From positions 11,410,001 to 11,474,000 of the forward strand of contig CM075990.1 in assembly GCA_038087875.1 (NCBI GenBank): DNA of 64,000 nt, read 5' to 3'. The notes under the pieces were generated by a model that made no database searches, was not told the origin of the DNA, and saw nothing but the letters and a program-made list of their open reading frames with translations. The translations under genes were made by a program, and so were the position numbers. Each line of letters starts with the position of its first letter. Within the stretch, counting starts at the first letter, position 1. Source of the stretch: Malacoraja senta (Eukaryota). Of this stretch, positions 741 through 57,340 are shown piece by piece.

Positions 741-830
741 CTGAAGAAGGGTCTTGACCCGAAATATAATCTATACCTTTTCTCCAGAGATGCTGCCTGA
801 CCCACTGAGTTACTCCAGCACTTTGTGTCT
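741..830 (+). mobile_element. Penelope-like terminal repeat fragment with hammerhead-like core
   Basis: 'ctgaagaagggtcttgacccgaaa' followed by the family body 'ctccagagatgctgcctgacccactgagttactccagca'. Confidence 0.65.
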
Positions 831-1107
831 ATTTTCACTTCACCCATCTGTCCAAGCCCACTCTCCCCCCTCCTTTCCTATGTTCCTTTCCACCCATAAA
901 CCTCTCTCTGCCTTTACATTTCACTCCTCTGTCAAATCTGCTCTACTTATCTACATGCATTTTTCTTCTTAACTTTTTAGTCATAGAATGATGCAGTGTG
1001 GAAACAGGCCCTTCGGCCCAACTTGCCCACACCGACCAACATGTCCCATCTAAACTAGTCCCACTCACACGCGTTTGGCCCATATCCATCTAAATCTGTC
1101 CTGTCAC

Positions 1108-1604
1108 CAGAGGTTCACCAGACTGATTCCTGGGATGGCAGGACTTTCATATGAAGAAAGACTGGATAGACTCGGCTTGTACTCGCTAGAATTTAGAAGA
1201 TTGAGGGGGGATCTTATAGAAACTTACAAAATTCTTAAGGGGTTGGACAGGCTAGATGCAGGAAGACTGTTCCCGATGCTGGGGAAGTCCAGAACAAGGG
1301 GTCACAGTTTAAGGATAAGGGGGAAGTCTTTTAGGACCGAGATGAGAAAAACATTTTTCACACAGAGAGTGGTGAATCTGTGGAATTCTCTGCCACAGAA
1401 GGTAGTTGAGGCCAGTTCATTGGCTATATTTAAGAGGGAGTTAGATGTGGCCCTTGTGGCTAAAGGGATCAGGGGGTATGGAGAAAAGGCAGGTACAGGA
1501 TACTGAGTTGGACGATCAGCCATGATCATATTGAATGGCGGTGCAGGCTCGAAGGGCCGAATGGCCTACTCCTGCACCTATTTTCTATGTTTCTATGTTT
1601 CTAT
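1108..1604 (+). mobile_element. Young CR1/HER1-like LINE 3' end, nested in an older minus-strand CR1 fragment (approx. 980-1715)
   Basis: Open ORF2 C-terminus (RFTRLIPGMAGLSYEERLDRLGLYSLE...GEKAGTGY*) and (TTCTATGT)n tail. The older CR1 3' UTR resumes on both sides. Confidence 0.92.
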
Positions 1605-2382
1605 CCATGTACGTGTCCAAATGTCTCTTAAACATTAGGCTTGTCCCAGCCTTAACTACCTCCTCTGGCAGCTCGTTACATACATCCAGCACCCTTTGTG
1701 TGAAAAAGCTACCTGTTAATTTCTGAAATATTGGTCATAAATTTGGTGCAAAAATGCTCCAAAATAAGGTTCAGTATGCATCAGAGAGCATCTAAAACCT
1801 CTGAGCTTACATTATTTCACATTAAGTTTTTTGTAATCCTGTCATGCCACCCCCCTTTTTGAAAAGCTTCGTACGGGCCTGTAGTGGGTCCTTCTGGAGG
1901 ACCAAATTGGCCTATTCCTGTAGACATATCTACCTCTCTTTAGTCACCTCCAGTTTAAATTGCATTTGGAATATTTTGGAGGACCAAGAAACCAAGAATC
2001 CGTAGACACTCTAGGCTGCAGTCTTTGTACAACAGCATCTTGTTAACAACACAACACTTTGAGAATTGCTGCACTCTCTGCAGCCTGCATTGAAATTGTA
2101 ATTGGATTTGTGCTTGGAACAACGGGCTGTTGGTATCTGACAGACACTGTGGAGTTTATCATCTTCATCAGTGACTGACTCTCTCAGCAGAGGATGCAAT
2201 CTAACTCAGTATTCTTGTGCACTGTGTTACCTCCTGTGTAAAATGTCCTTACAAATCAAAAAGATAAAAATACAAAAAGCAAGACTTGTCATGGAACCAT
2301 ACAGGATGGAAACATGCCCTCCAACCCACTATGACTATGCTGCCCATCTATATCAATTCCATACCTATTCCTACCCTTCCAT

Positions 2383-2790
2383 ACATAGAAACATAGAAAA
2401 TAGGTGCAGGAGTAGGTCATTCGGCCCTTCGAGCCAGCCATTCAATATAATCATGGCTGATCATCCAAAATCCCCATATCCCCTGATTCCGTTAGCCCTA
2501 AGAGCTAAATCTAACTCTCTCTTAAAAACATCCAGTAAATTGGCCTCCACTGCCTTCTATGGCAGAGAATTCCACAGATTCACATTGTCATTGTGACAAT
2601 GAATTTCATTGTCTTATCTGGGACATATGACATTAAAAGACTCTTGACTCTTGACTCTCTGGGTGAAAAAGTTTTTCCTCATCTCAGTCCTAAATGGCCT
2701 GCCTCTTATTCTTAAACTGTGACCCCTGGTTCTGGACTCCCCCAACATCGGGATCATTTTTCCTGCATCTAGCCTGTCCCATCCCTTAAG
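2383..2790 (-). mobile_element. CR1 LINE 3' fragment interrupted by a short Rex1-type 3' tail (approx. 2585-2657)
   Basis: 'catagaaacatagaaaataggtgcaggagtagg' is the reverse complement of the CR1 tail. The insert ends in 'ctcttgactcttgact'. Confidence 0.75.
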
Positions 2791-3928
2791 AATCTTATGT
2801 GTTTTTATTTTTTATTACTCTGGAAGAAGAACGTGGAAGCAAGGAACTGCGGATGCTGGTTTACCTAGGAGAGACACAAAATGGACAGAAAGGGCAGTGT
2901 GACAATGGGAAGGGGAGTTAAAATGGTTAGCAACAGGGAGTTCCTGCAGGCCTTGCGGATTGAGTGCAAATGTTCGGAGAAGCTACAGTACTTTTCACTC
3001 CCCGAGATGTACGAATGATATATTATTAAGGAGTGATCCTTATTGTACTGTAGGAAATGTGGTTATTGATTTTCCTTCAGAAAGTGGAGTGCAATTTAGT
3101 AATAATCTAATCATCTGTTTTACAGTATATGTTGGCTAAAGAACAAATGCTGGTGAGTCACCGGGATAAGTTCCATAGTCTTCTTCAAAACTGCTGCGGG
3201 CACTTTCCCTCTAGTTGAGAGAGATGATGGTGTCTCAGATATGAAGGTCTGCCAACAACATGCATTCCCTTTTGTGCTACACTGCAGAATCCACATTGAA
3301 CTTTATGATGTTTCCATGTTCTCTTGAGTTGAGTTTAGTTTATTGTCACGTGTACCAAGGTACAGTGAAAAGCTTTTGTTGAGCGCTAACTAGTCTCTCC
3401 ATTCAGTAGCAAGGGTTAGAAGAATATGGGTCCACATGCCATTCTGAGTTCAAAGGATGTAAATGTCATGGAGAAGTCAAGGCTCTAATACATGTCTTGA
3501 TTAATACGGGTGTCAGGGGTTATGGGGAGTAGGCAGGAGAATGGTGTTAGGAAGATATAGAGCAGCCATGATTGAATGGTGGTGTAGTCTTGATGGGCTG
3601 AATGGCCTAATTCTGCTCCTATCACTTATGACCTTATGACATTTACTTAAATGAAAGGAAGTTCATTGTAAAAGCTGTAACGAAGGAGGGCCATTAACAT
3701 GAAATATAAGAACATGAGAGGTTTTGGCAGGGTGGACACAGAGTTGGAGAATCTAACACTAAGGGCCACACCTTTCAAATAAGGATTGCACATTTAAGAT
3801 AGTGAATGAGGTGAAATTTCCCTCATTTTTGGAATTTTTTGGAATTCTCTTCCTCAAGAGATGCTGAGTCTGAATATTGTTCAGCCCTTGCTTATCAAGT
3901 ATCCGTCTGTCTCTGTCTTAACAATATT

Positions 3929-9352: not shown

Positions 9353-9540
9353 TTTGTTAAAGAAGGAACTGCAGATGCTGGAAAATCGAAGGTACACAAA
9401 AATGCTGGAGAAACTCAGCGGGTGCAGCAGCATCTATGGAGCGAAGGAAATAGGCAACGTTTCGGGCCGAAACGTTGCCTATTTCCTTCGCTCCATAGAT
9501 GCTGCTGCACCCGCTGAGTTTCTCCAGCATTTTTGTGTAC
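9353..9540. mobile_element. Palindromic Penelope-like short insertion (young subfamily)
   Basis: Perfect 75-bp arms (9391-9465 and 9467-9541). Flanking 14-bp direct repeat CCTCTATTAATGCA at 9339-9352 and 9541-9554. Confidence 0.85.
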
Positions 9541-9657
9541 CCTCTATTAATGCAAATATATTATCTCCAAACCCATGAGTTTTTATCTTCCAAAATAACT
9601 ATTGTGTGGCACTTTGTCAAATGCTTCATGGAAACATAAATCCAACACATTTGATTG

Positions 9658-9925: not shown

Positions 9926-11326
9926 TTGAAGTAACCATTTACTGGTTCCCATCCCCTCTGGCTGGTGCTTCCTGAAGGACCACAAATGAAATACATTGCA
10001 CATGAAGCTATGCTGAATCTGGGAAATGTTTATTTTTTATACAGAATTATTAAAGCAGATTATCTGATCATTATGATATTACAGTTTGTCAGAGATATTG
10101 CAAAATTGTATGTTTCTTAAATTGCAACTGTGCTCGATGTTTAGAAGTGTTTAATTGCTTGGAATTCACTATGGGACTCACTGTGGCTGTGAAGGGCAGT
10201 GTCATGTTTTTAGTGTTGCCTTGTAAATCTGCTGCTTTCTCCTGTTCAAAATCCCAACATTTGTTCCATCGGCCTTTTGCTGAATTGTAAAGCATAGAAC
10301 AAATACTGGAGGCACTTAACGGGTCAGACAGCATCTGTGGATTGAATGGATAGACAACGTTTCAGGTCAGGTCCCTTCTTCAGACCCAAGTTCTTCAGAC
10401 CCTCTTACAATTCAGATTTGTAAAGTCCCTCTCAACACGGCCTTGTAATTGTAAAACCTTAAAATGTCACTAATAATTAACCAACGTATTTGCAGAGGAA
10501 TGGGAAACTAGCTTTCAGCAATTTTTGGTATACATGTCATTTTTTTTAGTCCTGATCCATATCTCGAGTTGTATCTCATAATTGCTTCTGTGTAAACTGC
10601 AGATGGTTTCCTTGTAACTTAGTCCTCCTAATGACAGATACCCATTATGGAGAAGTGATGTACATTAGTGCACAGCCCCCCCACCTGGGAATCAAAGCAT
10701 CCCCACTGCTTGACATAAATGGATAAGGGAGATGAAGTGCTTTGTGCATCTCCTGCAGGGTGACAGATGGCCGGGTCATGATGGTAATCGGTTGAAGGGC
10801 CTTTCTGTTGGTTCGAGGCTTTGCGCAGTCTCTCTGCTGTGGGGATGGGGGCAAGTGAACTGTACTTAAGCCCCAAAAAAAAATCTTTATTTTTTTTGGT
10901 CATAAAAAGAGACACCGATTAAACAGCAAATTGTCATCTAAAACTGAAAGAAAAAAAAAGTTCTGATATTCTATCGAAACAAAATTCCCTTTTGCATAAT
11001 CTTTTCTCGTCACTAAATACTGGACGGTTTAAAGGCGGCTAAAATCTGAATCCATTCATGATCACAAAGACAAAAGCTGTGCAATTAACTTTTTACAAAG
11101 CTAAATGTACAGTTGTAAGTTCATAAGTTCATGTGATAGGAGCAGAATTAGGCCATTCGGCCCATCAAGTCTACTTCGCCATTCAATCATGGCTGGTCTA
11201 TGTTTCCCTCATAACCCCATTCTCCTGCCTTCTCCCCATAGGCTTGACACCCTTACATCTCTGGAGAACATGGAGAGGTGACGTTTCGGGTTGGGAAACG
11301 ATGAAGGGTCACGACCTGAAACATTA

Positions 11327-11632: not shown

Positions 11633-12179
11633 TTACTTGTCCACGTTCTCAAGAGATTCTGCCTGAAGTCCTGGAGACACTTCGCTGGCCCGGCAGCATC
11701 TGCAGAGGGAGGAACGGAGTTAGCAGTTTATTTTGATGTTTTTTTATGAGGGATGGTGGATGGAATTTCCCCCCAGCTGACAACACAATGCTTGCGTCAT
11801 CAGAGATAAAATAAATCTCAACTTCAGCAAATGCAAATTGCGAGTGTCCACACAATTGCAGCATAGTATCACACTCTCAGGAGGATGACTGGATGTTTGA
11901 AGCACAATGGGTTTGAGTTTTCAGACTTATATTAGTACAATACAAGTCAACTGGTTGAATAGATTAAATATTGGCTGGGGAACAGGGATGGGATGGGATA
12001 GGCAGTATTATCTCATTGCTGCTTTGGAACTGACATGCGCAAATACCATTCCTACACTACAGCAAAATTACTCCACTACAAACATCCCTTACTTGTTGTG
12101 GATACAGTCACAGAGAGACACATCAAGGAAATGAGTCCTGCAGCCCATCAAGTACATGCTGTCCAACAATCAAATATAT

Positions 12180-12427
12180 CAGCCTGAAGAAGTCCCAACC
12201 TGAAACGTCATCTATTTATGTTCTTTGGGAATGCTACCTGATGAGCTGAGTTACTCCAGCACCTTTTTTTAAATCAAACATTTATACTCATTCATTGTAG
12301 GAAGGAACTGCAGATGCTGGTTTAAACCGATGATAGACACAAAATGTTGGAGTAACTCAGCGGGACAGGCAGCATCTCTGGAGAGAAGGAATGGGTGATG
12401 TTTTGGGTCGAGACCCTTCTTCAGACT
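12180..12427. mobile_element. Inverted pair of Penelope-like terminal repeats
   Basis: Plus copy 'ctgaagaagtcccaacctgaaacgtc...' and minus copy whose reverse complement reads 'gtctgaagaagggtctcgacccaaaacatcaccc'. Confidence 0.7.
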
Positions 12428-14634
12428 CATTCTACATTAATCCTATGTATTTATTCTCCCCACATACCCTATCAACTCTTCCACAGATTCTACCACTCGC
12501 CTAGATTCAAATTAACCTGCTAACCCGCATGTCTTTGGGTTGTGGGAGGAAACCCGTGCATCCAGAGGAAACCCACGCGGTCACAGGGAGAACTTTCAAA
12601 GGTCAGTCAGATACGGTAATGTTTGAGGTCAAGATTTAGAGCAGGATTTCTGGCACTGTGAGACAGCAGGTCCATGAGACACCCCTGATTGTGCTGAGGC
12701 ACCTTAGGGTGCGATACATGCAACAGTAACACATTTAATGAACAATGATCACACAGTTATGGACCAGAGCTTGGCAATGGGATTGCTAGGGATGGTCCTA
12801 TTGACTTTTATAGATGTGATGAGTCGAATATTGTCACTGAGATCAATACATTTCAATGCTTGCTGAGAATACAGTTCCCTCACAAGAACCATGGCATCGT
12901 TTCAGATGTAGATGGTCAGATATTTCTATCATCATTCTATGGAGATGCAACCATTGAACATGTTCAAGCCTGATAGACAGATTGTTGGACCATAGCGGAA
13001 ACAAAGGGCTGGGGATTTCTGGCAGGGACATGGATCTGAGATTAAAGATATCTTTTGTTTCCTGTTCTTACTTTGCTTCATATGTTCAGATCTCGTTCAT
13101 CACACAAAGCCAATGGAAAGTTTGTTTTTTACTGACCTGTACAGCCATCCTCTCAATTAACCATCATGAAGTGATAAGGTGGCACATCACCTGAAATGTT
13201 CCACCCTTTATCACCAAAACAATTGTAGCAGACATTTTTAGAACTGTGTTTGGGGTAAACTGAAAGGGTGGAAGGATGACGGGTGCCAGGATGAAGACAA
13301 CCTGACCTTCTGTGTTTCATTGCATAGTGGCATTAACACAGCCAACAAGTTGTGGGAAGTCTGATTCATATCATTGGCAGCCTCATCAATCAATGTCATT
13401 GTAGGATCTTCCACCACACTGAAGGTTTCATCTGCTGCATATAAATTATAAATTGCCTGTGACTTGAGCCTGATCGGTTAATGAAACTCCAAAACATTCC
13501 TCTCAGTTTTGTGCAATTAGCTGAAAAATAACTTTAAAGTTCTTTTTAGCGCTCCAAAGTGATTTGGACCCATCCAATTAATAGTTGACGTGAACTTATT
13601 GTTACACTGTATGAAACAGGCAGCCACAATCAGCAGGGCAAGCACATGTTTTAAAGTGATTTTAAGAAGTAAATAATTGTCAAAATGGCAGTAGGATAGT
13701 GTTAGTTGTACGGGGATCACTGGTCGACGTGGACTCGGTGGGCCGAAGGGCATGTTTCCGCGCTGTATCTCTAAACTAAACTAAAATGTGGCGCCAGATA
13801 GGAATTCTCAACCTAAAGTCGACCCCTCAGACACTGCAGCACAGCCTCAGTACTATACTGCTGCACCAGAATGGCAATTAAACTCACAGCATTCTGAGGT
13901 AGAGTTTTGTCCTCCATGGTAATAATCCCAGGGTCTGCAGTAGTAATTGCCATCAGCTATCTCTCTGTGGCCACACTGTTGTTGCCTACCATGTATTCCA
14001 CGTTTTCTAGCAGACCTGATCACTGCATTTGCATCATATTGTACTGCCATCTATACAACAAAACTTTAGCTAAACCTATCTTTTCCTGATTAAAGAAAAT
14101 TGTCACTGTCAGCAGGGTACCAATGTTTCTTTCCTTCTCTTTAACCAAGCATAAACCCCTCTCCCAGAGCAGATGACATAAAGATGTATGTCTCCGGTAC
14201 CCAGGAGTGATGGACTTTGCACATTCATTATCTAAACTATTCAGGTGGTTTCCCGACCTTCCCCCAGGCGAGGAGTCTCTCACTGTGTGGAAAAAAGAAT
14301 TGACTTAACCCTTTCAATGAGAAGAGGTTGAAGAGGCTCGAGCTGAAATTGTGCAAAGCTAATTCTGCTCTGAGGGGGATAAAAGAACAAACAGGTTGAT
14401 AAATGGACTGTGGTGTAAACACATCAATGGAATGTTGCAACAAGGTGGTTAAACCTCCAGAATAGGAAGCAGCTCCTCCATATTTCATCCTTAATAGACC
14501 TGTTTTATTTTCACAGGTGAATGGCTGGCATATTGGAAGACAATATGAGGTGTTTGCAATGATGACAGTGATGCACAGATGTTGGTGGTCTAATCTTGCA
14601 ATGTTAAACTCGAATATCACCTCGGTCTTTTTCG

Positions 14635-16824: not shown

Positions 16825-17060
16825 GAAACAAGGAACTGCAGGTGCTGGTTTATAGACCAAAGATTTATAGACACAAAGTGCTGGAGTAACTCAATGGGAC
16901 AGGCAGAATCTCTGGAGAAAAAAGAAGGGTGATATTTCGGGTTGGTACCCTTCTTCTTCTTCCGGTCTGAAGAAGGGTCCCAAACCGTAACGTAACCCAT
17001 CCTTTTTCTCCAGAGATACTGCCTGACCTGCTGAGTTACTCCAGCAATTTGGGTCTATCT
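16825..17060. mobile_element. Inverted (fold-back) Penelope-like repeat
   Basis: A minus arm 'ggaactgcag..tgctggagtaactca..ctggagaaaaa' and a plus arm 'tctgaagaagggtccc..ctccagagatactgcctgacctgctgagttactccagca' face outward from the hammerhead-like region. Confidence 0.75.
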
Positions 17061-18784
17061 TTTGTGTTTTGTTGTCATTTGTACCAAAAGGAACAATGAA
17101 ATTCTTACTTCCAGTAACACAGCAGGTTTGTAAATATAGTACTCAAGAGATGACACAATAAACATAGAAATGTTCGATAAAAACCCCCCAATATAGTGCA
17201 AAAAACAATACTCTGCCTGGTCTCCGGTGCAACCAAGGCAGTTCATAGTTCAGAGTTGAGCTGCAGTTCACAGTATTCAGTAGGCCAATGGTCAAAGATG
17301 TCCGTGAACCTGGACATTACAGTTTCAGACTCCTGTACCTCATTCCCAATGGCAGGAGTTAAATGAGAGTGTGGCCAGGGTGGTGTGGGTTCTGACAATG
17401 TTGACTGTATTTTTGAGACACCGCCTCCTATAGATCTCTTCCATGGTGGGGAGGTCAGTCCCTGTGATTGACCAGGCCGTATTTACCACTTTTTGTCACC
17501 TCCTTCGTTCCTAGCATTGACTCAAGCGAGCTCAGACTCTGGGAAAGTTCATGTTCATAAGCTCATAAGTTATAGGAGCAGAAATAGACCATTCAGCCCA
17601 TCAAGTCTACTCCACCATTCAATCATGGCTGATCTATCTTCCCCTCTCAGCCCCATTCTCCTGCCTTCTCCCCATAACCCCTGACACATGTACTAATCAA
17701 GAATCTATCAATCTCCGCCTTAAAAATATCCATTGACTTGGCCTCCACAGCCTTATCTGGGAAAGATGTGGGCCTTTTAGGACTAAGGAGAAATGTCTTT
17801 AAGTTAAGAGGCTGTGAAACGTTGGCGTTCTCTGGCTCAGAGGGCTATGGATGCAGTTGTTATGTATTCTCACGGCTGAGGTCGATGAGATTTTGTAAAC
17901 TAGAATTAATGAGAGATTTAGGTGCTTGGGCTGAAAATGGATATGGTGGGAGTCTGCACAAGGGGTGACTTATTATTTCTTATCTTTTTATGTACTTTAA
18001 TCAGTTAAAGAGAAAAGCAAGATTTACATTTCATGCAAATATCTCATCAGCCCTCTCAAATACTTCACAGACTGTGGCATTAAAGATCGCAGATGCTGTT
18101 CTGCAAGCAATAAACTTTTATCTTCAGCAGATAAGCCTAAAAATAGTCTAAATGTAGCAGAGTTCCATTACTATCTGCAGGAATGCAATGGATAGTGTAG
18201 AACAATGTTAATCTTTATGATCATCAGAACTGAGTGTGCTGGGTGACTGGTGAATTGCTCACTTTAGGTACAGCAAGCATAAGTCTTTCCATCGAGATAA
18301 TTACAGCTCAATAAAATAATAAATCCTCCAGTGATGATGTTGAAACTCCAATAACAGCTCTAATATAAAATGCTAAACTCCATGGTCCTGTCCTATGCGG
18401 GTCTTTTGAAGTCTATGAATGCTGGATCGTAATACCGTCTAAATGTTGACCATTTTTTATTCCTCCACTGATATAGTAGGAGTCTACACAAGGGGTGACT
18501 TATTATTTCTTGCCTAACCCTAACGACTTCTTCCAGCTGGTTATATTTTTGCCTTGTGTGAGTAGTGTTATTCTCTCATTAGATTATCTGTTGTAACAAC
18601 CTTCTTACTGATGTTCACTTCAAGGTTTTTATTTGCATTGAATTACATGGTTTCTGGGGGTCTAATAAGGGCGGTAAAAGATACTGGCTGAGCCTGCGAT
18701 TCATACATGTAAAGTTGAGGAGATTTTGACTGCCAACATAAAACATCACCTATCCATGTCCACCAGAGATGCTGGATCTCAGGA

Positions 18785-22968: not shown

Positions 22969-23894
22969 TAGTGAGATGTGGGAGATGGTTAGGACATGCA
23001 AGCCTTCCCTTTGCAACCACACCCAACTGCTGCCAGAGAATACAGTGAGTAGTTCTGGGGCACCTCCTCTTTGGAGAGATATCTTGGCTTTGGAGGGAGT
23101 GGTGTGTAGATTTATCGGAAGCATAACCAAGCTCTAAGGGTTAAAGAGAAAGAAGGGAGATCTGAGCAGCCTGTGTAGATGGCAATGAGTCATTCTCTCC
23201 TTCGAGTGAACTCTTTGGCAAGAGCCTTTGTTTTACTTCTGTGGAATGTTTGCTGCCAACCACAAACGTGCGAACACTGGACGGCAGTCAGGACATTGCT
23301 GGAAAATCCAGCTCCAAGATTCTGAAACGGTCTTCCTGCTCCTAATGCCAAGATCCTTCTGGCTCTGTCACTGCTTTCCCCTCCGCTGATCTCCACGGGA
23401 GCTGCGTCCCATGTTTCCAATCAATGCCCAAACACTTCATCACCTTTTCTTTGCAGTTTCCATGCACGCTGTTGCATGTTTAGAGAATATACGAGCAGGA
23501 ATAGTACAATGATTCAGTGGGTAGAGTTGACGCCTCACTGCTCGAGTGACCCAGTTCAATCCTGACCTTCCGTGCTCTCTGTGTGGAGTTCGCACATTCT
23601 TCCTGTGACCGTATGGATTTCTCTCGAGTGCTCACTTACCTTTGTACATCCCCGTGGTTGGTAATTCAATTGACCGCTGTGAATTATCCCTAGAATAGGT
23701 GGGTGTTAAAAAAAATCAGGCTGAAATAGATAAAGAGATGCTAGGAACTGCAGGTGCTAGTTTACAAATAAAGACAAAATGTGCTGGAGTAACTCAGCAG
23801 GTTAGACAGTATCTCTGGCGAGCATGGAGCATAGGTAAGGTTTTGGGTTGGGATCCTTCATCAGATTGATTGTGTTGCGGTGTGAAGAATAACC

Positions 23895-33678: not shown

Positions 33679-35216
33679 ATGGGTTTAGGTTCATTGGTCT
33701 CTGTCAAATTGCACTGAGTGAGCAAGGAGTGGATGCGAAAGTGGATAACATAGAACGTGTGAAAGGGTGATTGAAGGTCAGTGTGGATTAGATGGGCCAA
33801 AGGTGTAGACTAGTCTGAAGAAGGGTCTCGACTCAAAACATCATCCATTCCTTCTCTCCAGAGATGCTGCCTGTCCCGTTGATTTCGTCCAGCATTTTTG
33901 TGTCGAGGTGGGCCGAAGGGCCTGTTTCCACAATGTATCTTTCAATCAATCAATTATTCTAAACAGCAGTAAACACTGACATTTGGTCTGTGCAAAATTT
34001 TATAAGATGTTTTTGGAGGCACGGCATAGCTCTGGATTTTTAAAATACTGCAAGAATGTTGCACGCAAGGCCTTGAATGAAGTAATATTTGCATCCACAA
34101 TCTGGGCAGGAATCTGGCACCGGTTGTTTGTGTTTCTCCCATCAAGGACACAGCACAGAGTCTCCTCACATTCTAGCATTAACACCTTTTGTTTCCAAAC
34201 ATTGCGCTGGTGTCATTTCAACATGAATGTCATTTTAATAAGAAAAAGGCACTGGGCTCTACGGTCTGGTAGTCACCTTTTGTGAAGCAATTTAACAAAA
34301 CGCTCCTGAGTCTATGACAATTTGTGGATAAATAAAACAGGCTGTTATGCAGATTTAATGGAATTTTAATCGCTTTTGCATCTTATCTACAAACCTACAC
34401 AAAACAAGCTGTCTTTGAAATTGGTTTTCTTGTATGTACAGCTCTGGCTCCCAGACACAAAGCTGGTGTCAATCTGAGGGAAAAAAGGGTCTTGTACGTT
34501 GCTGTTGTTCAAGTGTGGCAGGTGCTTCTGCTACAGGCGAGCTTCTCTGCGGAACTGTTTCCTGGCTGAAAATAAGCTTTGTGAATTTGCTTTTACTGAG
34601 ACTTGCCGGATGATTCATCTGCTCTATAAAGGAAGGTTTTTTTATGTGATGTAAAAAGGAGCGAGTTTGTGCGATTTAAAATAAAGAGAATTTTGCAACA
34701 TCAAGTGCTTTACAGCTCGAGACGTAAGTTTGAAGTGTACACACTCAGGAATTCCCTCTCAAAGCTTTTACCTCTCTATTTTCTCTCTTGAAGATGCTCT
34801 TATAACATTTAATTTTAACAAGCCATTGGACATTCGTTCTAAATACTCACTGCGTAGCTTGATATAGTTATAGTTTTATTTTGTGCGGTGCTGTGTGGAG
34901 CTATGTATGTGGAAGCTGTTGTAGATGTTTAACCAGTTGATGCTGATCTCTCACTGATAAATATGCTTATTGCATAAATGCAAGAGCTTTATGCAACATC
35001 ACAGAGGGATAAATGCATTACAGTTATTGGCATAAAGTACATTTAAAGTGTCACATTTATTGTGATTTTGTGAAATGGGGAATTATTTGTTCATAGTTGT
35101 TCCCTCTTGAGTGCTATGACACAGTTGTGAAGAATTGGGTTGATTGCAAAGTTTCCTTTACATTGGACTTACCCTACATACTGCATGTTGGCACTGCATA
35201 CACTAGGCAAATTTGG

Positions 35217-35509: not shown

Positions 35510-36022
35510 AAATTTAAGTCCGATGCCTGCACAACAGGTTTCTTTTAAACATGAGAACCTCAGCAACATGTAACATCCATCAGTTGATAGACACAAAAAG
35601 CTGGAGTAACTTATCGGGTCAGACATCATCTCAGAAAAGGAATAGGTGATGTTTCGGGTCGAGACCCTTCTTCAAATTATCTATCAGTAAATGGATTGCT
35701 CTTTTTACTCAATCTGCAGCAGTGTATTTATTTTCTTGCAAAGAACTGCTTCAGGATTAAGCAATTCTTAAATTGTCATCCTGGTTTTCAAATTGCCTCA
35801 TCATCTCACTCTTTCCCTTCTCTGACGTCTCGATGTCCAGCCCTATAAACCTCCTAGATCCAAGTGCTCCTCGAAATGCGGCCTCATGTACATCCCTGAA
35901 TTTAATCATTATGTTATTAGTGGCTTGGTCTTCAGCTGTCTAAAACCAAAGGACTGAATTTTTCACAGAGACTTTGGTCCTAAGTCTAACTTTTCCTTAT
36001 ATGTCTCAGCGTTATTATTTTC

Positions 36023-42322: not shown

Positions 42323-43489
42323 TAATAGTAAATTAAATGCAAGAAGAGTGCATGAAGTGTTTTATATATATATGGTTTTGGTTTTGTATATATTTTTATT
42401 ATGAATAAAGATTATTTTCAGCAAAACACTGTACTTGCTCAAAATATATATACACATACAATATTAAACACATTGATACCAGTACTGGACTGGTATCAAT
42501 GTGTTTAATTCTCCAGGAAGATGGGTGAACCTTCAGAAGTGGGGGGGGCAAGTGTGCTGCAAATTGTTCTGGGCAGATGACACTTAAAACCAGCTGTCTA
42601 CAATCCAATTTCATGGTCATTTTTTACCCAGGGGGGAGAGGACAGTAGCACAATGTTTTTTCTTGCATCTGGCTATTGGCATGAAAGAATCTCCCCTCTT
42701 CATTAAGCTGAAATGAAGTCAAGGGAAAGGAGGCCCGTGGATCAGGATGTATGTAGCAAGAGGCGGGACGGGGGAAATCTAAATCTTGTCCAATCTCCCC
42801 AGGCACTGTCTATAAATGGGTACAAAAGGGGAAGGATGTAGATGCTAATTAGTGTGTGGCTCTCTGATAATGCGATGCCGGGACTGCACTGAGTCGGCTG
42901 AAACATAAGCAGAGGAGTTTCAGCTACAACTTGTCAGAAGTGCAACAACATATGGTGGCGGACCTCGTAATCAAAACAAGCTGAGCGGAGTCTGTGGTCC
43001 GGTGAGAGGCCAGACAGAACAGGCATCTGCTGCTCCATAATTGATAGCAGCGTTGATGTTTGGGGAGCACTATGTAACTATTGACCCCATCAAGCTTTGA
43101 AATATGGCTTTCTGGCAGGGTAGGGGGTCCAAGCCGATTTACATGGAGACTTTACAAGCGTAAAAGTTCCTCAAATTACATAGAACATAGAACAGTGCAG
43201 CGTAGAAACAAGCCCCTCGGCCCACAATGTCTGTGCCCAAGTTAAACTACTCTCTACCTGCTTGTGATCCATATTCCTCCATTCCCAGAATATTTATGTG
43301 CCTATCCAAACGCCTTTTAATTACTATCGTATCTACCTCCACACCACACCTGGCAGCATGTTCCAGGCACCAACTTAATCTCCTTTAAACTTTACCCCCC
43401 CCCCCCCTCACCTTAAAGCCATTATCCAAACCAACGTGCTTATGCTCAGTAAGAATACAATACTCAGCTAAGATACATACATTTGACCA

Positions 43490-43705
43490 CAGATAGATAC
43501 AAAGTGCTGGACTAACTCAGCGGGTCAGGCAGCATCTCTGGGGAAAATAGATAGTTAACGTTTCGGATCGCGACCCTTCTTCAGATGAATTGTCCCGACC
43601 CGAAACATCACCTATCTATTTTCTCCAGAGATGCTGCTTGACCCGCTGAGTTACTCTAGCACTTTGTGTCTATCTTTTGTAGAAGCCAGCATCTGCAGTT
43701 CCTAC
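43490..43705. mobile_element. Inverted Penelope-like repeat with a complete hammerhead-like core on the minus strand
   Basis: Reverse complement of about 43554-43586 reads CUGAAGA-A-GGGUCGCGAUCC-GAAAC-GUU. The arms are inverted about 43590. Confidence 0.75.
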
Positions 43706-43795
43706 TTATAACATTGGGCCACAGTTCACCTCAGACAGCTGGTTAATTGAAGAGTAGGTCAGGAAAGAAGACAGAAGACATGAGAGAAGACAGAA

Positions 43796-45146: not shown

Positions 45147-47028
45147 CGAGGACTGCTTCATGGAGGTTTCCTTGAAGCAAATGGGGATAGTAGATTATTG
45201 ATGTGAGTGTTTAAGATGTCAGCAAAGACTGTGCCTGTTTATTGATGCATATTTAGAACTCATCCAGGGACTCAATCCGGGTCGGACACTTTCGCGTGGC
45301 CATCCTTCTTAAAAGCCTTGGATCTGGAGTTTAGAAGAGAATGAATGTCACTGCTCATCCAAGGTTTCTGGTTCGGACAGATTCCAAGTATCCTTGCCGG
45401 AACACAATATTCATTGCTTGTCTTGATGAAACCGGTGACAACTGGGTCTGAAGAAGGATCTCGACCCCAAACATCACCCATTCCTTCTATCCAGAGATGC
45501 CGCCTGTCCACTGAGTTACTCCAGCATTTTGTGTCTACCTTCGGTATAACCAGCATCTGCAGTCCTCTACTACACAACTGAGGTGTACACATTGTGGCTA
45601 AATGAAATGATCTGGAACCTGTTTCAGTCCCCTGACTCAAGGCAGTCTTGAGAAAATCTTCCAAGATCTTTGATTTTCTCCTACACACCAAAGACATACA
45701 GGTTTGTAAGTTAATTGGCTTGGTATAAATGTAAATTGTTCCAGTGTGTGTAGGATAGTGTTAATGTGTGGGATCGCTGGTCGGTGCAGACCAGAGATTC
45801 CACGCTGAATCTCTAAAACTAAAAAATAAAGCACAGAATAGTCACCTGGTTGGGCCCCTCTTGAAGCATTTCTGATGGTATTTGGGGAGTATGTTTTGTG
45901 AAGTTAGCTTGAATGAAGTTCTATCTCTCTCTCTTTCTCTAGTAACATATTCCATGGTGAGTGGACAAAGCCGCAGAAGCCTCCGCGGATTCACCTGATT
46001 CCACACGATGTCTTTTGATGCAGCAGACCTGTTACGGCTCATTTCCCAAGTTCATTTCCCCAGCACTCCGCTGATGGGTCTGAACAATCTCCCTGCAGCT
46101 GCATTTGGAAAGTGATCAGGTCCATTTTCTTCCCATCTGCTTTTCATACAAGATGAGTTTTCTCCCAGGGCAGAAGCTTTTAGTTGACACCAATTGACCT
46201 TTTTTACGTGCCATTGCTGCGTCAGCTTTCAGGAACTAGTTAGTCCCCAGCCCTGCTGTGGGCTGCACGTTTTGACATATTGATTAGCTGGTGCTGTGAA
46301 ATAGATGAATTTACCTACTCCACACAAATTAGTCCTTTCCGTATTGATTGAGGGCAGCAATCACTGCCAGTGACAGTCCACAGAAGACCATTAAATGTTC
46401 TCACTCCATCCTCAGTCCTATCCTCTGTCCCTCTTCTCCTCCCACCTATTTCTTCTGTCCTTCTTCCCTTCTATCCTCTTTTCCTCTTTTCTGCCTCCCA
46501 CCTCCTCCTTTTCCTTTTCCTCTCTATTGCAGTGTGTCCCCCCTCCCCCCCATTGCCTATTGCCCCTTCTTCCATCTTTCTCCTCTCCCCATTAAGGCCA
46601 TAAGATCATATCAGGTGCAGGAGCAGAATTGGCCATTCGGCCCATCAAGTCTACTCCACCATTCAATCATGCTGATCTATCTCTCCCTCCTAACCAATTC
46701 TCCTGCCTTCTCCCCATAACTTCTGACACCCGTACTAATCAAGAATCTATCTATAACTGTCTTAAAATTATCCACTGACTTGGCCTCCACCGCCTTCTGT
46801 GACAAATAATTCCAAAGATTCACCACCCTGTGACTAACAAATGTCTCCTCATCTCCTTCCTAAAGAACGTCCTTCAATTCTATGACCTAAGAACGTCCTT
46901 TAATTCTAGTCCTAGACTCTCCCACTTGTGGAAACATCCTCTCCACATCTACTCTATCCAAGCCTTTCACTATTCTGTATGTTTCAACGAGGTTCCCCCT
47001 CATTCTTCTAAACTCCAATAAGTATACC

Positions 47029-47465
47029 TGCTTGGGTAGCTTACAACCCAATGGTATGAACGTTGAATTCTCCAATTTTAAGTAACTAACTCTCCCCCCC
47101 CCTTTCTTTCCCCAACCCTTTTCCCCTCTTCCTTCCCCATGTCCCACCTGACCCCCACCTGTTTCTCCCCTTCCACTTACATTCCTTCTTCTAGCTTCAC
47201 AATTTACAACTCTTCAATGCTTTTGTGTCACACCTTCTGTCCTTTCAATGTCTGGTCTTTGTCCAACCATCAAAAACCCTCCTCACGTGTCTACTTCTTA
47301 TTTGCCAGGCTTTGTCCACCTCCCTCTTTTCCAGCTTTCTCCTTCCATCCCCCCCCCCCCAATCAACCTGAAAAAGAGTTTACCCAAAGTTTAACCTACC
47401 CCTGTTTTCAGAGATGCTGCCTGACCCACTGAGTTACTTTGTATACCAGTCTCTGCAGTTCCTTA
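47029..47465 (+). mobile_element. 3' end of a Penelope-like element: last ORF codons, pyrimidine-rich UTR and terminal repeat
   Basis: 47032-47085 translates LGSLQPNGMNVEFSNFK*, resembling the L-x-[TS]-L-x-P-x-G-[LM]-N end of PLE GIY-YIG domains. It is followed by the 'cagagatgctgcctgacccactgagttac..ctgcagttcctt' repeat. Confidence 0.7.
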
Positions 47466-48797
47466 TTTTAACATACATTTTCTATCTGCAGTATTTGCTA
47501 TTCGTGAGATGCACTGCAGAAACTTGCTAATCCTACTTGGACATCTCTCAAGCCTCCTATGTCTTTTGTGCCCAATCTATGGTCAGTGGTCACTTATTTT
47601 CACACCTTACCCTTCCATATCTCTATGTCTCCCTCTCTCCTGACTCTCAGTCTGAAGAATGGTCACGACCTGAAATGTCACCCATTCCTTCTCTCCAGAG
47701 ATGCTGCCTGCCCGCTGAGTTGCTCCTGCATTTTGTGTCTATCTTTGGTGTAAACCAGCATCTGCAGTTCCTTCCTACACTCTGGTCAGTGGGCTAGATG
47801 TGACCCTCGGAGACAACTCTTGACCAATGGTGACTCAGATCTGGATATTTACCTTGCAGGACCACAAGCCCCCCTCCTTGGTGATACACTTTGCTTCCAC
47901 ATTGTTGACTGTGGTTTACAGTGGGTTGCAGATCACGAGTGTTCGAGAATGGATAGTGGTGGGAGGCGATCAAGATCTTGAGAAGTTGGAGCAGTCAAAG
48001 AGGGATTAAGAGCTGGAATGGGAAGCAGGAGAGGAAGGTTTGGAACAGGGGCACAGAAGATGGTGATGACGACGAGCTTGAGGAAAGGTGTGTCATGCCA
48101 CGATCGAGATGAAGAGAGATATCCAGATTCAGATTGAGAATTTGGTTTGCAGACATAACAGATATAAAATCCCACTTAATTGCTCATTCACCACAACCCT
48201 GAACAGTGGCAGAACTCATCTGACTGAGGAATGTATCTTTTCTCTGTAGATGCTTAATTTTGGGCATTGACAGTTCCAAGTTATTCCTTTATCCCGTTGC
48301 TCTAACCATTGAAGGGAAAGAGATACCCCGGGGCCAGATTGGTCTGCATGTCCACAATTAATTAAATGTCCCATCAAATATTATCAAAGCAGAACCTCAA
48401 CGATTAATGTTTAAATCAATAGACTTTGTGGATTAACATTGCCTGTCAACAGCACCAGCTTTTCAATTGGTAGATATTTGCTGATCCCTAACCAATCATG
48501 TCAATCATTTGATTGCTTATTAATTACCCTCTGACTTGATTGATCCCTAGTTATATATTTTGCTGTATTTCTATAAAAGCAAATTAAGCTTTTTTCCCGA
48601 GAATCATTAATGCTTTGAATTAGAGTCATAGAGTGTTTCCACATACAGTGTGGAAACAGTCCTTCGGCCCAACTACAGAGACTACCCAGTGGGTGTTAGC
48701 ATTTATAGAGCTTCCCCAGGGAGTATATCAATGCTTACAGGATGTCCCTGGGAGTGTGTCTGTACTCACAGGTGAAAGAGGGACTCTGATAATGTTT

Positions 48798-48981
48798 TAA
48801 AGAAGGAACTGCAGATGCTGGAAAATTGAAGGTACACAAAAATGCTGGAGAAACTCAGCGGGTGCAGCAGCATCTATGGAGCGAAGGAAATAGGCAATGT
48901 TTCGGGCCGAAACGTTGCCTATCTCCTTCGCTCCATAGATGCTGCTGCACCCGCTGAGTTTTCTCCAGCATTTTTGTGTAC
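48798..48981. mobile_element. Palindromic Penelope-like short insertion (young subfamily)
   Basis: Nearly identical to 9353-9540, including the centre 'tttcgggccgaaa'. 14-bp duplication CTCTGATAATGTTT at 48784-48797 and 48982-48995. Confidence 0.85.
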
Positions 48982-50301
48982 CTCTGATAATGTTTACTGG
49001 CAGAACAGTGGAGGATGCCCAAGCCTACAAGGGTCTGGATTGTAAGTATTTGCACAGTGCTCTGAGGAGAATGTCAGTCCTCCTCGGCCTACACCAGCAT
49101 TTACTGACATTCTCTGGGAGTCCATTAATCTTTATATGCGGTTCCAGGCTCTTACAGAATGTCAATATTTTTTGGGCACAAAAAGCTTTGTGCTTGTGGT
49201 CAGAGGTTATGGGAGAAGGCAGGAGAATGGGCTTAGGAGGGAGAGATAGATCAGCCATGATTGAATGGTGGAGTGGACTTAATGGGCCGACTGGCCTAAT
49301 TCTACTCATCACTTATGATCTTGTGTGTCATTGCTAACTGGTGTTACACATAACAGGCCTTCACTAAAAGTGCATTGCGATTAACATATAACATCCCCGA
49401 AACTGCAAGTGGTACCATTTTAAAGGGAGGTCATAAGGTCATAAGTGATAAGAGTAGAATTAGGCCATTCGGCCCGTCAAGTCTACTCATCATTCAATCA
49501 TGGCTGATCTATCTCACCCTCCTAACCCCATTCTCCAGCCTTCTCCCCATAGCCTCTGACACCTGCACTAATCAAGAATCTATCTATCTCTGCCTTAAAA
49601 ATATCCACTGATTTGGCCTCCACAGCCTTCTGTGGCAAAGAATTCCACTAATAATAATAATAATGAATTTTATTTATGGGCGCCTTATACCGAGGTCTCA
49701 AGGACACCTTACAGAGATTTATAGAAAACATATAATCAGAATTTAAAAAAAATAAGTTATAAAGACCAATACACAAATCAGGGACAGAATTCCTTCCAAA
49801 AACACAAAAAAGAAAATCAGAAGCACAATTTGAGGAGATACTGTGCAGAAACTGTAGAGATACTGTGCAGAAACACCACTTCCTTACACACACTAGAGAC
49901 AATTTTTACATTTACGCCAAGTTAATACCTGATCGTAAAACCCTGAGAGTGGGTTAGCATTTGCAGTGAGTTCCTGGGAACGTGTCAAAATTAACAGACC
50001 GCTGAGAGTGTCCATTATTTACACAGTCCAGAGATTTCTGCCTGGACCCCACTCATTGGTCTTTTTTTGTGCATTTTCCTTCCTGAAGTCCACTTTAATC
50101 CATGGTCCAATTATCTTGAGACCTTTTCATGCATTCAAGTCTACATTGTAAAATTATTTACATTGTTGAGTCAAGAGAGTCACGAGTGTTTCATTGTCAT
50201 ATGTCCCAGATAGAACAATGAAATTCTTATTTGCAGAACAAAATATGTAAACATGGTACACTGTGAACAATATAATGAACAAAAAAAGTTCAGTGTTTGT
50301 A

Positions 50302-50362: not shown

Positions 50363-50418
<56 letters not shown>

Positions 50419-50464: not shown

Positions 50465-50518
<54 letters not shown>

Positions 50519-50530
50519 ATGTGTGTATAC
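50302..50530. repeat. (CA)n followed by (TA)n microsatellite
   Basis: Directly visible. It lies within a Rex1-type 3' UTR fragment starting near 50168. Confidence 0.97.
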
Positions 50531-53843: not shown

Positions 53844-55857
53844 GAATAAAGGTACAGTAAAAAGCTTTTGTTGTGTGCTATCCAGTCAGCAAAGAGACAA
53901 TACATAATTACAATCAAGCCATTTACAGTGTATGGATACATGATCAGGGAACAACATTTAGTACAAGGTTAAGCCAGTTTTTCATAAGATTCCAACATCT
54001 GCAGATTGTTTCTCATAAGATTCTAACATCTGCAGTTCCCTGTGTAATAGCCTCCATAGATATTGGCCTGACCCACTGAGTTCTTCCAGCACTTTGTCAT
54101 TTGTTCAAGATTCCAACATCTGCAGTTCCTTGTCTATCTCCATATACATGGTGGAGATAGACAGATAATTGAACTACACGGGGAAGGTGGCGTGAGACCA
54201 AGTCTAGATCATCATTATCATATCGGATGGTTGATCTGGGTTGAGGGTCTGTTTGGCCTACTCCTGCTCATATTTCTTGTGTGTTTATGTATTGAAGAAA
54301 GGTTGGCTTTTTAACACCCTAATGAAGGAAAGTCATGAAAAAAGGACATCTTTTGAGATTGGATTGATTGGCTTGGACTCATTCCTGGCTGAGAGGGGTT
54401 AATAATGACCCAAGCATTACCCTGACAATCCAATATTTAAGGCTGCCATTGTTGATCCTAATTTTTAATCCCAGAGTTATTTAATTAATTGAATTAGTAT
54501 TCCCCAGCTTCTGTGTTGGGACTTACACTTGTCACCGATCATTGGGCCAGGTCTCTGGCTACTGATCTACTCAATTATCCACTACACTTCTGTACCTGCT
54601 ACACTGAGAATAAATCTCCCCCAGAGAACGCAAAGTTCATTCTATACCCCAGAAGACTAATTGAATTGTAAAAATATATTTTTAAAGAGCATTGATTTTT
54701 TTCGCCACCTACTGTAATTTGACCCATTATCCATATCTAATTAGGAATTTCACTTAGAAAGGCTGCTCATTTAGTTGGCGTAAGAAATTAGTATTAGGCA
54801 GCCCCTGGAAAAGCAATCAAGAGACATTTTGTAAAGCAGCTCAACTGTTTGAGAAAATCCGTAGAACGTATTTATTTCTAAAACATAAACTGAACATCAA
54901 AGGAAAACTCCCTGAAATATTCATTCCAATAAGAACATAGTTAGCCTTTCCATTGTTAGTGTCAGCCTTTGATGGATGGCCCATCACTTTAATACCGAGA
55001 CTCTCTTATCTACAGTTTAGAGACATCCCCTTTATAATTTGATAATTTCCCAGAGTGATCATAAAGGTTTGAAGTGGAGACTGTTATTTGCTGCCCCTGA
55101 TATTGTTTATAAAATCATTCATTTCTCATTCATCCTTGGATTCCAATTAACTGTAAAGCAAGTTCAAATACAAACTCTAATCTCTGATTCCATAAGAATG
55201 AGATCTGGAGTGTGCCTGTGAATACAATTGGATTTTTATTACTGCAAGTCTTGTTATTAGAGAGAGATGTTCTCTTTTGCTCTGCCCCCGATAGAAAATG
55301 TACATATTCAGCTCTTAATTTGATCAATTGAAAGCCTCTGTCACTGGACTGGCAGCATTAGTATACAGAGTCAATTGGAGCCTTCAAGCTGGAATTAGAT
55401 AAACACTTTTAATAATAATAAATAATATTACAATAAATTTCCATTCAAGAATAAATGCTTAATGGAGAAAAATAATACCTGAGAGGCTGGGAGGAAAATG
55501 TATAAACAGAACAAACTAGGGGGCTTTTTGAAATTGCCAACAAAGGCTCAAAGGGCCGAATAGTCTCAGATTCCTCTCAATGATTCTATTTAAAATGCTG
55601 ATTTTTCAACTCATCTGAGAGGATGATCATAGTAAGAGAAGTCTCGTTGTGGGGGGATTCCTGTTGATTGGAGTTAGTGTAGGAAGGAACTTCAGATGCT
55701 GGTTTACAAACTGCTGTAGTGACTCGACGGGTCGGGCAGCATCTCTGGAGAAAAGGAATAGGTGATGTTTCATCAGACTGAGAGTCAGGGAGGGGGAAAC
55801 TAGAGGTATGAGAAGGTACAGAAGAAAGCAGAGTCTGCACCGATGACTCAGGAAAGG

Positions 55858-56382
55858 TGCCATAGAGGGAGTGCAGAGAAGGTTCACCAGACTGATACCG
55901 GGGATGTCAGGACTGTCTTATGAAGAAAGATTGGATAGACTTGGTTTATACTCTCTAGAATTTAGGAGATTGAGAGGGGATCTTATAGAAACTTACAAAA
56001 TTCTTAAGGGGTTGGACAGGCTAGATGCAGGAAGATTGCTCCCGATGTTGGGGAAGTCCAGGACAAGGGGTCACAGCTTAAGGATAAGGGGGAAATCCTT
56101 TAAAACCGAGATGAGAAGAACTTTTTCAAAACAGAGAGTGGTGAATCTCTGGAACTCTCTGCCACAGAGGGTAGTCGAGGCCAGTTCATTGGCTATATTT
56201 AAGAGGGAGTTAGATGTGGCCCTTGTGGCTAAAGGGATCAGAGGGTATGGAGAGAAGGCAGGTACGGGATACTGAGTTGGATGATCAGCCATGATCATAT
56301 TGAATGGCGGTGCAGGCTCGAAGGACCGAATGGCCTACTCCTGCACCTAATTTCTATGTTTCTATGTTTCTATGTTTCTATG
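55858..56382 (+). mobile_element. Young CR1/HER1-like LINE 3' end
   Basis: Open ORF2 C-terminus almost identical to 23931-24335, with (TTCTATGT)n tail. Confidence 0.92.
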
Positions 56383-57121
56383 TGAAGCCCACAATGGTCC
56401 ATTGTTGGCTGGGGACAGGGTGGTAACGAAGAAATACAAATGATGACATTAGCAGAGACATTTTCTACAGAGATGCTGTCTGACCCGATGAGTTGATTGG
56501 AATTAGTGGGCTGTTTGGAGCATTAGGTCTATTCACTGGCAACCACACCACCCTATAAACGAGATGGGGTTAGGAGGGAGAGATAGATCAGCCATGATTG
56601 AATGGCAGAATAGACTTAATGGGCCAAATGGCCTAATTCTGCTCCTATCACTTATGTAGGGTGAGGCAAGATGACACAGGAGACTGCGGAAGATGGAATC
56701 TTGAGCAAAAAAAAAGGTGCTGGCAAAACTCAGTGGGACAGGCAGCATCTGGGTAGACGATGTTTTGAATTACTACATGCCAGGTAGTGAAGGGACTCCC
56801 ATGGAAGTGTCGGACGAGGGCCTTCCAAATTTTTAATGATGTAAAACAAATTTTTTTTCATGCTACATGATTTGGTGGAGAAATTCTTGCATGTGTTTAA
56901 TGCCTTTGTCCTTTAGGTTAAAGGCAACTGAATCACCCTACCACAACCAGAGAGCAGTGCTGAACTAATGTCGATCTCATTGGTGATCCTCGGACTATCC
57001 TTGATTGGACTTTGCTGGTTTTACCTTGCACTAAACGTCATTCCCTTATCATAGATCGATTGTAATCATGTAATGTCTGTTGTCTATTGTCTTTCTGCTG
57101 ACTGGATAGCATGCAATACAA

Positions 57122-57340
57122 TGTGTAGGAAGGAACTGCAGATGCTGGTTTAAACCGAAGATAGACACAAAATGCTGGAGAAACCCAACGGGACAGGCAG
57201 CATCTCTGGAGAGAAGGAATGGGAGACATTTCGGGTCGAGACCCGAGAAGAACCGAGAAGGGTCGAGACCCGAAATGTCACCCATTCCTTCTCTCCAGAA
57301 ATGCTGCCTGTCCCGCTGAGTTACTCCAGCATTTTGTGTC
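57122..57340. mobile_element. Inverted Penelope-like repeat inserted in a Rex1-type 3' UTR (approx. 56930-57405)
   Basis: Arms meet at 'tttcgggtcgagacccgagaagaaccgagaagggtcgagacccgaaa'. Confidence 0.78.

Follow-up and report, generated by a model that had tools for sequence, protein, structure and literature searches.

Short dispersed repeats of the skate Malacoraja senta are probably terminal units of a Penelope-like element family carrying a minimal hammerhead motif

Minimal hammerhead ribozymes (min-HHRs) lacking helix III and loop 3 have been described in the pseudo-long terminal repeats (pseudo-LTRs) of metazoan Penelope-like elements (PLEs) and occur, among others, in the fish PLEs Xena, Poseidon and Neptune (Cervera and De la Pena, 2014, PMC4209133). 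What recurs in them is a base separating positions 9 and 10.1, a G10.1-C11.1 pair, palindromic positions 15.2/16.2, a long helix II and a short, poorly defined helix I, of 2 bp only in D. virilis. Most of them are dispersed single motifs coming from truncated copies, and opposite-strand pairs 100-700 bp apart are also found. Insertions of endonuclease-bearing (EN+) PLEs show 5' truncation, pseudo-LTRs, an inverted 5'-truncated copy at their 5' end and a tail of 30-40 bp which is often one-sided (Craig et al., 2021, PMC8557442). In the Poseidon element PAc of Anolis carolinensis (Frangieh et al., 2024, PMC11167929), cutting and extension by the protein take place on both strands, reverse transcription has two adjacent internal start sites whose interval is the tail, the main template is uncleaved RNA, and the ribozyme cleaves only with the protein, no RNA-seq ends being found at the cut site. 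Here we analysed a window of 64,000 nucleotides of the skate Malacoraja senta (GenBank assembly GCA_038087875.1, contig CM075990.1, positions 11,410,001 to 11,474,000 of the forward strand), in which short repeats with a hammerhead-like core are dispersed. With a probability of about 85%, these repeats are the terminal (pseudo-LTR) units of a skate PLE family, each opening with a min-HHR whose predicted cut, after GUC or GUU, is likely to be weak and to take place as a dimer or with the element's own protein. Literature searches combining Penelope with skate or shark names found no paper on this family.

When CTGAAGANGGGTCTCGACCCGAAAC was searched on both strands with up to 3 mismatches, nine matches were found in the window (741, 8359, 12400, 30955, 33586, 33815, 35651, 43560 and 45448), against none in 100 dinucleotide-preserving shuffles. 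The flanks of these nine copies could be aligned for ~135 nt downstream of the motif and not upstream of it and, therefore, the motif is the opening of a repeat unit. A profile of this unit, built from 31 near-consensus genomic copies, identified 41 places in the window, between 741 and 59540, that hold a copy or a fragment and together occupy 3,767 nt (5.9% of the window); the hammerhead-like core is spanned by 18 of the 41. We also applied a strict min-hammerhead descriptor, which is our own rendering of the text of PMC4209133: CTGANGA followed by 0-1 additional bases, a helix no shorter than 4 bp and closed by G-C, 3-8 nt of loop, GAAA, Watson-Crick pairing of 15.2 with 16.2, T, and then any base except G. 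It was passed by two of the 18 core-bearing copies (741 on the + strand and 43584 on the − strand), and no match was obtained in 200 shuffles of the window. The usual damage to the core was CpG decay, from GAAACG to GAAACA or AAAACG. These results confirm that repeats carrying a hammerhead-like core are a real feature of the window. The original prediction was right in stating that most copies are mutated, and each of its eleven example places coincides with a match of the unit profile; the span that it gave, 741 to 57340, is indeed occupied by the family, which also continues beyond it, with other copies up to 59540.

The unit comprises ~135 nt: (A)TCAGT, CTGAAGA-A-GGGTC-TC-GACCC-GAAA-CG-TC, ~67 nt and an optional tail of ~37 nt. 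The ends of its copies were studied on 192 profile matches from the window and a spread sample of 399,200 nt, taken at round coordinates on 17 contigs. Starts peak at the 5' end of the unit (105/192 at profile positions 3-9). Ends are bimodal, with 81 at profile 95-112 and 85 at 128-142 (peaks at ~103 and ~140), which is why the ~37-nt tail is regarded as optional; outside both classes there were 7 ends at profile 113-127 and 19 before 95. Counted from the predicted cut, these end points are located some 67 and 104 nt further downstream. The three boundaries so defined (the 5' end and the two end points) are also the places at which the RNA reads considered below lose their fit to the unit. 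In addition, 180 copies with an intact 5' end were classed by their upstream sequence: 58 abut an inverted arm, 50 continue into the 3' untranslated region (UTR) of a PLE and 72 have unique upstream sequence, so that short units also occur solo, with their 5' end fixed at (A)TCAGT.

The connection with PLEs came from the sequence upstream of the unit. Several older genomic copies, of the main subfamily, have in front of the unit the end of a decayed open reading frame (ORF) and a pyrimidine-rich, conserved stretch of ~200 nt. A 272-aa remnant of this ORF was 33% identical (E 7e-38) to residues 654-888 of P0004, a protein of 892 aa with an RVT_1 domain (38.2 bits) and, in its C-terminal part, one of GIY-YIG type (25.7 bits), both over the Pfam cut-offs. 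Shark proteins were found as well, and they show the existence of related PLEs. A Pfam scan of a 135-aa ORF remnant gave nothing, and longer remnants gave only GIY-YIG below threshold. Searching the genome with P0004 yielded 62,285 first-look candidates. Scoring was done at 51 places, and all of them showed 46-47% identity to P0004 over ~708 aa, no internal stop and open frames of 754-1302 aa; open Penelope-like ORFs of this size stand at loci L087-L096, such as that at 1896-5645 of L096. Six loci with intact ORFs, located on different contigs, were 99.5-100% identical to each other over 2.1 kb and, therefore, the family is very young. In all six, which encode reverse transcriptase (RT) and GIY-YIG, the stop codon is followed after 113 nt by the unit, which is on the sense strand and whose core reads CTGAAGA-A-GGGTTTCGGCCC-GAAA-CG-TT.

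The layout of the long copies is that of an EN+ PLE. Locus L096 consists of a unit (1763-1897), an ORF, a second unit (5759-5893) and an ORF, the two units being identical over 144 nt, as a pseudo-LTR. Nucleotides 1796 and 1797 flank the predicted cut and, with the first ATG at 1932, the start codon is 35 nt behind the end of the unit and 136 nt behind the predicted cut. At L095 the ORF is likewise flanked by a unit on each side, and L093 and L094 are head-to-head pairs of long (full-length) copies. The L096 ORF (1250 aa) has RVT_1 at residues 734-903 followed by GIY-YIG at 1154-1187, and it matches P0004 at E about 1e-198. Both Pfam scores of the skate ORF itself remain under the curated cut-offs (RVT_1 26.4 vs 29.6; GIY-YIG 19.2 vs 22.6). 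Two hallmarks of EN+ PLEs are present, a single ORF with RT and then a C-terminal GIY-YIG, and pseudo-LTRs from tandem or partial-tandem copies (L096 and L095). The position of the unit in the six intact copies and the pseudo-LTR of the tandem ones bear out that part of the original prediction which read the repeats as PLE termini. From these sequences, the element looks to have been active in the skate recently, and perhaps is so currently.

In the 3' UTR in front of the unit (for instance at 1741-1770 of L096), the last 40 nt are 77% pyrimidine and end in CAG, which, by general consensus rules, would be splice-acceptor-like. By rules of the same kind, the boundary word TCAGTCT at the 5' end of the unit is presumably initiator-like. 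In D. virilis, an intron end coincides with the 5' edge of helix I (PMC4209133).

The motif itself was compared with the published min-HHRs. The consensus of the family and its young copies show the CUGANGA and GAAA boxes followed by U16.1 and H17, in the order of a type I hammerhead. The base between A9 and G10.1 is unpaired and is A in 97% of 156 copies, and the G10.1-C11.1 pair (profile G17-C28) is the consensus pair in 120 of 153 cells. There is no helix III or loop 3; instead, GAAA-CG-UC or GAAA-CG-UU gives a self-complementary ACGU. The original prediction had regarded the additional A behind CUGAAGA and the weakness of stem I as departures from the hammerhead fold, an appreciation that has to be corrected, as a base at that place and a short, poorly defined helix I recur among the Penelope min-HHRs (PMC4209133). 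Judged by sequence, the extra A after A9 and the missing helix III with its ACGU are published, diagnostic traits of this group, and the short helix I is probably another. The order of elements (CUGANGA, unpaired base, helix II closed by G10.1-C11.1, GAAA, palindrome, U-H), the sense-strand position in the pseudo-LTR, the dispersed single motifs and the close opposite-strand pairs are all as in that survey. In contrast to its many covarying families, the skate has one family with a very uniform consensus.

The opposite-strand pairs were counted among 311 unit matches in 600 kb, part of which had been picked for containing a copy. Head-to-head pairs were 57 and tail-to-tail pairs 5, so that about a third of the profile matches are arms of head-to-head pairs. 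The outer ends of the 57 pairs fall within one of the two end classes in 100 of 114 cases. A tail is present on one arm only in 38 pairs (21.5 expected under independence), on both arms in 4 (14.3 expected) and on neither in 1 (8.1 expected). An exact flanking word of 9-15 nt is common to both sides in 22 of the 57 pairs, compared with 1.1% of re-paired controls; hence, such a pair is a single insertion with one target duplication. Among solo short units an exact flanking word of at least 10 nt was much rarer than in the pairs (6/60; control 0.7%). Two further hallmarks of EN+ PLEs are thus found, the inverted 5'-truncated copy at the 5' end (57 against 5 pairs, and loci L093 and L094) and the optional 30-40-bp tail, often one-sided. 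With 5' truncation and partial-tandem pseudo-LTRs, the skate copies share the insertion features described in PMC8557442; the difference is that in the skate the pattern is borne mostly by miniature copies of 100-260 nt, and hence can be counted, as in the 38 of 57 pairs with a one-arm tail.

Palindromic copies with flanking duplications, which are many, could also suggest a foldback or miniature inverted-repeat transposable element (MITE) of DNA-transposon type, and weak A-box- and B-box-like words, seen by eye on the antisense strand, a tRNA-derived short interspersed element (SINE); in either case the hammerhead likeness would be due to chance. The hairpin copies give, besides, sub-threshold matches to microRNA models. 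However, ARAGORN reported 0 tRNA-like genes, the duplications are of variable length (9-15 bp), the arms of a pair differ in extent and stop at two fixed end points, and the unit lies within the 3' UTR and the pseudo-LTR of ORFs with RT and GIY-YIG. Chance likeness is further opposed by the 200 shuffles without a match to the strict descriptor. We find a SINE or MITE origin hardly credible. As for the sub-threshold microRNA-model matches, those at 9412-9520, 48855-48957 and 57478-57573 are merely hairpin copies of the unit, and that at 50447-50533 is an AT/AC microsatellite. The best sub-threshold microRNA matches of a lax Rfam scan fell in AC/AT and CA-rich microsatellites (50303-50533 and 26228-26500) and are low-complexity artefacts.

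The original prediction had left open, beside PLE termini, a retrozyme-like nature of the units, that is, small non-coding self-excising RNAs which are circularised and, by back-copying, give tandem arrays. In its favour are the type I hammerhead-like motif, the lack of coding capacity and the high abundance, and animal retrozymes have been proposed to derive from PLE pseudo-LTRs (bioRxiv 10.64898/2026.07.22.740005). The skate units resemble the animal non-LTR retrozymes of Li et al. (2026, preprint) in being non-coding, hammerhead-bearing and related to PLE pseudo-LTRs. However, whereas retrozymes form tandem arrays that give circular RNAs, the skate units are dispersed, with fixed ends and target duplications. 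None of the 15 tandem-repeat rows of the window is an array of units. Nor are the copies permuted, since they begin at profile 3-9 in 105 of 192 cases and at the cut site in 2. Target duplications accompany single copies as well as pairs, and the units are contiguous with the ORF and 3' UTR of the PLE. With no tandem arrays of units, no permuted copies and no class of copy ends at the cut site, we consider a retrozyme-like origin very improbable, and terminal units of a PLE remain the preferred reading.

On this basis, the probable origin of the copies can be outlined with PAc as a guide. As in PAc, the hammerhead of the skate element is at the junction of pseudo-LTR and ORF, and copies end at two sites, 30-40 nt apart, downstream of the ribozyme; the extension of both strands observed in vitro for PAc would yield head-to-head pairs like those of the skate (PMC11167929). 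The two systems differ in that the PAc ORF starts at stem II and reverse transcription begins 111-118 nt inside it, whereas the skate start codon is 136 nt behind the predicted cut, and in that the PAc start sites were measured while the skate end points are deduced from genomic copies. The two end points of the skate copies are then probably two internal start sites of reverse transcription, as described for the Anolis PLE, and the head-to-head pairs probably result from both cut strands having served as primers. Short units found solo would be cDNAs of the leader between the 5' end of the RNA and the first internal start site, which would account for the great excess of units over ORFs. The template would be uncleaved RNA, and the hammerhead, if active, would work as a dimer or with protein in a step other than template trimming. 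In a further-reaching reading, the miniature head-to-head insertions might record PLE integration, in which one complex would prime both cut strands, using one of the adjacent start sites on each (hence the one-arm tail), and would mostly copy the ribozyme-bearing leader. Such misfired leader cDNAs would make up ~4% of the genome, and the hammerhead would lie at the extreme 5' end of the template without being used for its trimming. We advance this last, further-reaching reading tentatively and think it unlikely rather than probable.

Several observations count against ribozyme activity, without affecting the identity of the repeats. Helix I is weak, with 2 bp, a 2x2 mismatch and 2 bp (AUCAGU/ACCCAU), where the published trait is 4-5 bp, although the D. 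virilis variant is similarly weak; helix II, whether read as 5 bp and a 2-nt loop or as 4 bp and a 4-nt loop, is shorter than the 6-8 bp of the survey (PMC4209133). Only 2 of the 192 copies start at the predicted cut. The Rfam covariance models for hammerheads, a check proposed with the original prediction, gave no match at gathering score or at E<=10 over the window, nor at E<=10 in 301 nt around a near-consensus copy; these models expect helices that the motif does not have. Stem II covariation was absent from 156 copies: among 769 cells, 628 have the consensus pair, 52 show a one-sided change that leaves the bases paired, both sides differ in 2 and pairing is lost in 87, a neutral-decay-like distribution. 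The covarying stems anticipated by the original prediction (GGGUC/GACCC, GGGUC/GAUCC and GGGUU/GGCCC) were thereby not borne out, only one-sided changes that keep G.U pairs being seen between lineages, and the covarying consensus families of published min-HHRs have no counterpart here, in a test of low power (one family, with most copies dead). With ViennaRNA, the pair probability of helix II was <=0.005 in two natural copies, because GAAGAAGG pairs with the downstream CCUUCUUC, and in cofolding the predicted dimer does not use the ACGU palindrome.

For the window sequence itself no RNA run was listed. Transcription was examined in one raw poly(A) RNA run of a related organism, which, at 96% likeness, covers the unit and hardly the ORF or 3' UTR, and which is uninformative on the expression or the transcription start of the young element. 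Starts and ends of its reads gather nowhere on the unit, taking a fifth of the local depth as threshold for gathering, and this also weighs against cleavage. The reads cover the two strands of the unit about equally and 95%-97% of them continue into unrelated flanks, which suggests read-through of dispersed copies. In addition, words of the unit occur in sequencing runs labelled with at least nine organisms and, therefore, near-identical units seem to be common to several related species.

Self-cleavage of the unit RNA is a prediction, and the core could instead be a relic that no longer cleaves and is kept in the leader for protein binding, as a promoter or for template recognition. The disfavoured helix II, the stem II without covariation, the scarcity of copy starts and the absence of gathered read ends at the cut site would all suit a relic. 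So would the poor in vitro cleavage of published PLE min-HHRs (PMC4209133), and the Anolis ribozyme mutants, which left in vitro insertion unchanged, together with the lack of RNA-seq reads starting or ending at the site (PMC11167929). Against it, the young lineage retains intact all eleven invariant bases of the core, the A9/10.1 bulge, the G10.1-C11.1 pair and the ACGU palindrome. Four cluster consensus lines share an identical core (profile 9-36), apart from a single loop base that differs in the fourth, whereas the flank behind it varies at several places between these lines (~14%, counted by hand on two of them). Hammerhead rules are also obeyed by the four changes that became fixed between lineages: in the intact-ORF lineage, C21 -> U and A25 -> G (helix II) and A1.1 -> G all retain G.U pairing, on the sense strand only, and C17 -> U is allowed. 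The three changes inside the core would all be hammerhead-compatible by chance in ~6% of cases, by a rough reckoning, which is only a hint. Moreover, the Anolis motif did cleave once its protein was added (PMC11167929). We regard the relic as a serious possibility, with the odds somewhat against it, and a weak, dimer- or protein-dependent ribozyme as part of the reading that we prefer.

The abundance of the family was estimated from the spread sample, in which 151 unit matches were found (0.38 per kb, occupying 3.8% of the bases) and distributed over 35 of 40 stretches, together with 15 cores intact by the strict descriptor. Scaled to the genome of 1.94 Gb, these figures correspond to about 735,000 units and ~73,000 intact cores, extrapolated and not counted, the Poisson range on 15 cores being roughly 41,000-120,000 genome-wide. 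First-look candidates for the endonuclease end (88,343) and for the long ORF (62,285) go in the same direction and are not copy numbers. In the 2014 survey (PMC4209133), about 4,000 motifs were given for the coelacanth and 9,000 for Xenopus.

The features found in the window are collected in Table 1. The repeats adjoining the units at 12430-12570 and 33690-33960 are other abundant fish repeats, one with GGTTTCCTCCCACA...CCAAAGACATGC and another with GGGCCGAAGGGCCTGTTTCC, into which the units seem to have been inserted. These neighbours have the look of SINE or long interspersed element (LINE) tails. A run of 200 N (assembly gap) occupies 44947-45146, just upstream of the unit at 45444. Two adjacent tandem arrays (periods, 47/94 nt and 30 nt; matches, 95-97%) occupy 19874-20312 and have no relation to the units.

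Table 1. Unit copies and PLE fragments in the window (positions from its first nucleotide; profile, positions in the unit profile).
Position	Strand	Feature	Remarks
741..838	+	Unit copy, profile 9-106	Core passes the strict min-hammerhead descriptor
2837..2949	−	Unit fragment 2837-2883 (profile 87-135)	Abuts a 22-aa PLE endonuclease remnant, 2884-2949
8211-8287; 8271-8386	+; −	Two overlapping tail-to-tail copies	Cores decayed in both
9354..9547		Head-to-head pair; left arm with tail (ends at profile 140), right arm without (107)	Flanked by 14-bp target duplication CCTCTATTAATGCA; arms join within helix II
10295..10387	−	Tail-less unit copy, profile 5-99	Decayed core
12179..12264	+	Old unit copy, profile 4-91	Part of helix II deleted
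12296..12429	−	Full tailed unit, near consensus	Two CpG-decay changes in core; predicted cut between 12397 and 12396
15260-15360; 15368-15479	−	Two decayed copies in the same orientation	
16827..17064		Head-to-head pair; tail on one arm (134), the other without (106)	5' end reached by both arms
23740..23869	−	Old decayed unit copy	CTGATGA variant
24440..24527	+	5'-truncated copy without tail, profile 12-99	
30715..30839		Small head-to-head pair	Both arms 5'-truncated (profile 48-110; 47-105)
30849..30979	−	Full unit with tail	3 core changes
33581..33687	+	Tail-less unit of the intact-ORF subfamily (helix II GGGTT/GGCCT; cut site GTT)	12-bp target duplication
33810..33904	+	Tail-less unit copy	229 nt downstream of unit 33581..33687, same strand
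35583..35676	−	Tail-less unit copy	C3 -> T
43483..43709		Head-to-head pair	Strict descriptor passed by the minus-arm core (43584)
45444..45576	+	Full unit with tail	Decayed core
47029..47467	+	5'-truncated PLE fragment: last 18 endonuclease codons (47029-47082), 3' UTR, decayed unit (47365-47467)	C-terminal endonuclease remnant 283 nt upstream of the unit
47590..47781	+	5'-truncated PLE fragment: 60 nt of pyrimidine-rich 3' UTR and full tailed unit (47647-47781)	10-bp target duplication
48797..48983		Head-to-head pair, built as 9354..9547	Flanked by 14-bp duplication CTCTGATAATGTTT
55676..55771	−	5'-truncated copy with tail, profile 29-139	
57121..57345		Head-to-head pair; tail on one arm (140), the other without (102)	
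57425..57582		Head-to-head pair, 5'-truncated arms	Flanked by 14-bp duplication AGAATTATAGAGGT
59484..59540	+	Short unit fragment, profile 43-100	

The skate unit family is an additional instance of an already known system, at very high copy number. It places a very young PLE bearing a min-HHR in a cartilaginous fish, and its extrapolated number of intact cores is roughly ten times the largest counts of the 2014 survey. Since the copies are tiny and numerous, the integration rules of Penelope can be counted from one genome, namely two end points, a tail on one arm, an inverted partner and duplications of 9-15 bp, and the rules so counted agree with the sole in vitro study. In annotation, the hairpins formed by the units should not be taken for MITEs, SINEs or microRNA precursors.

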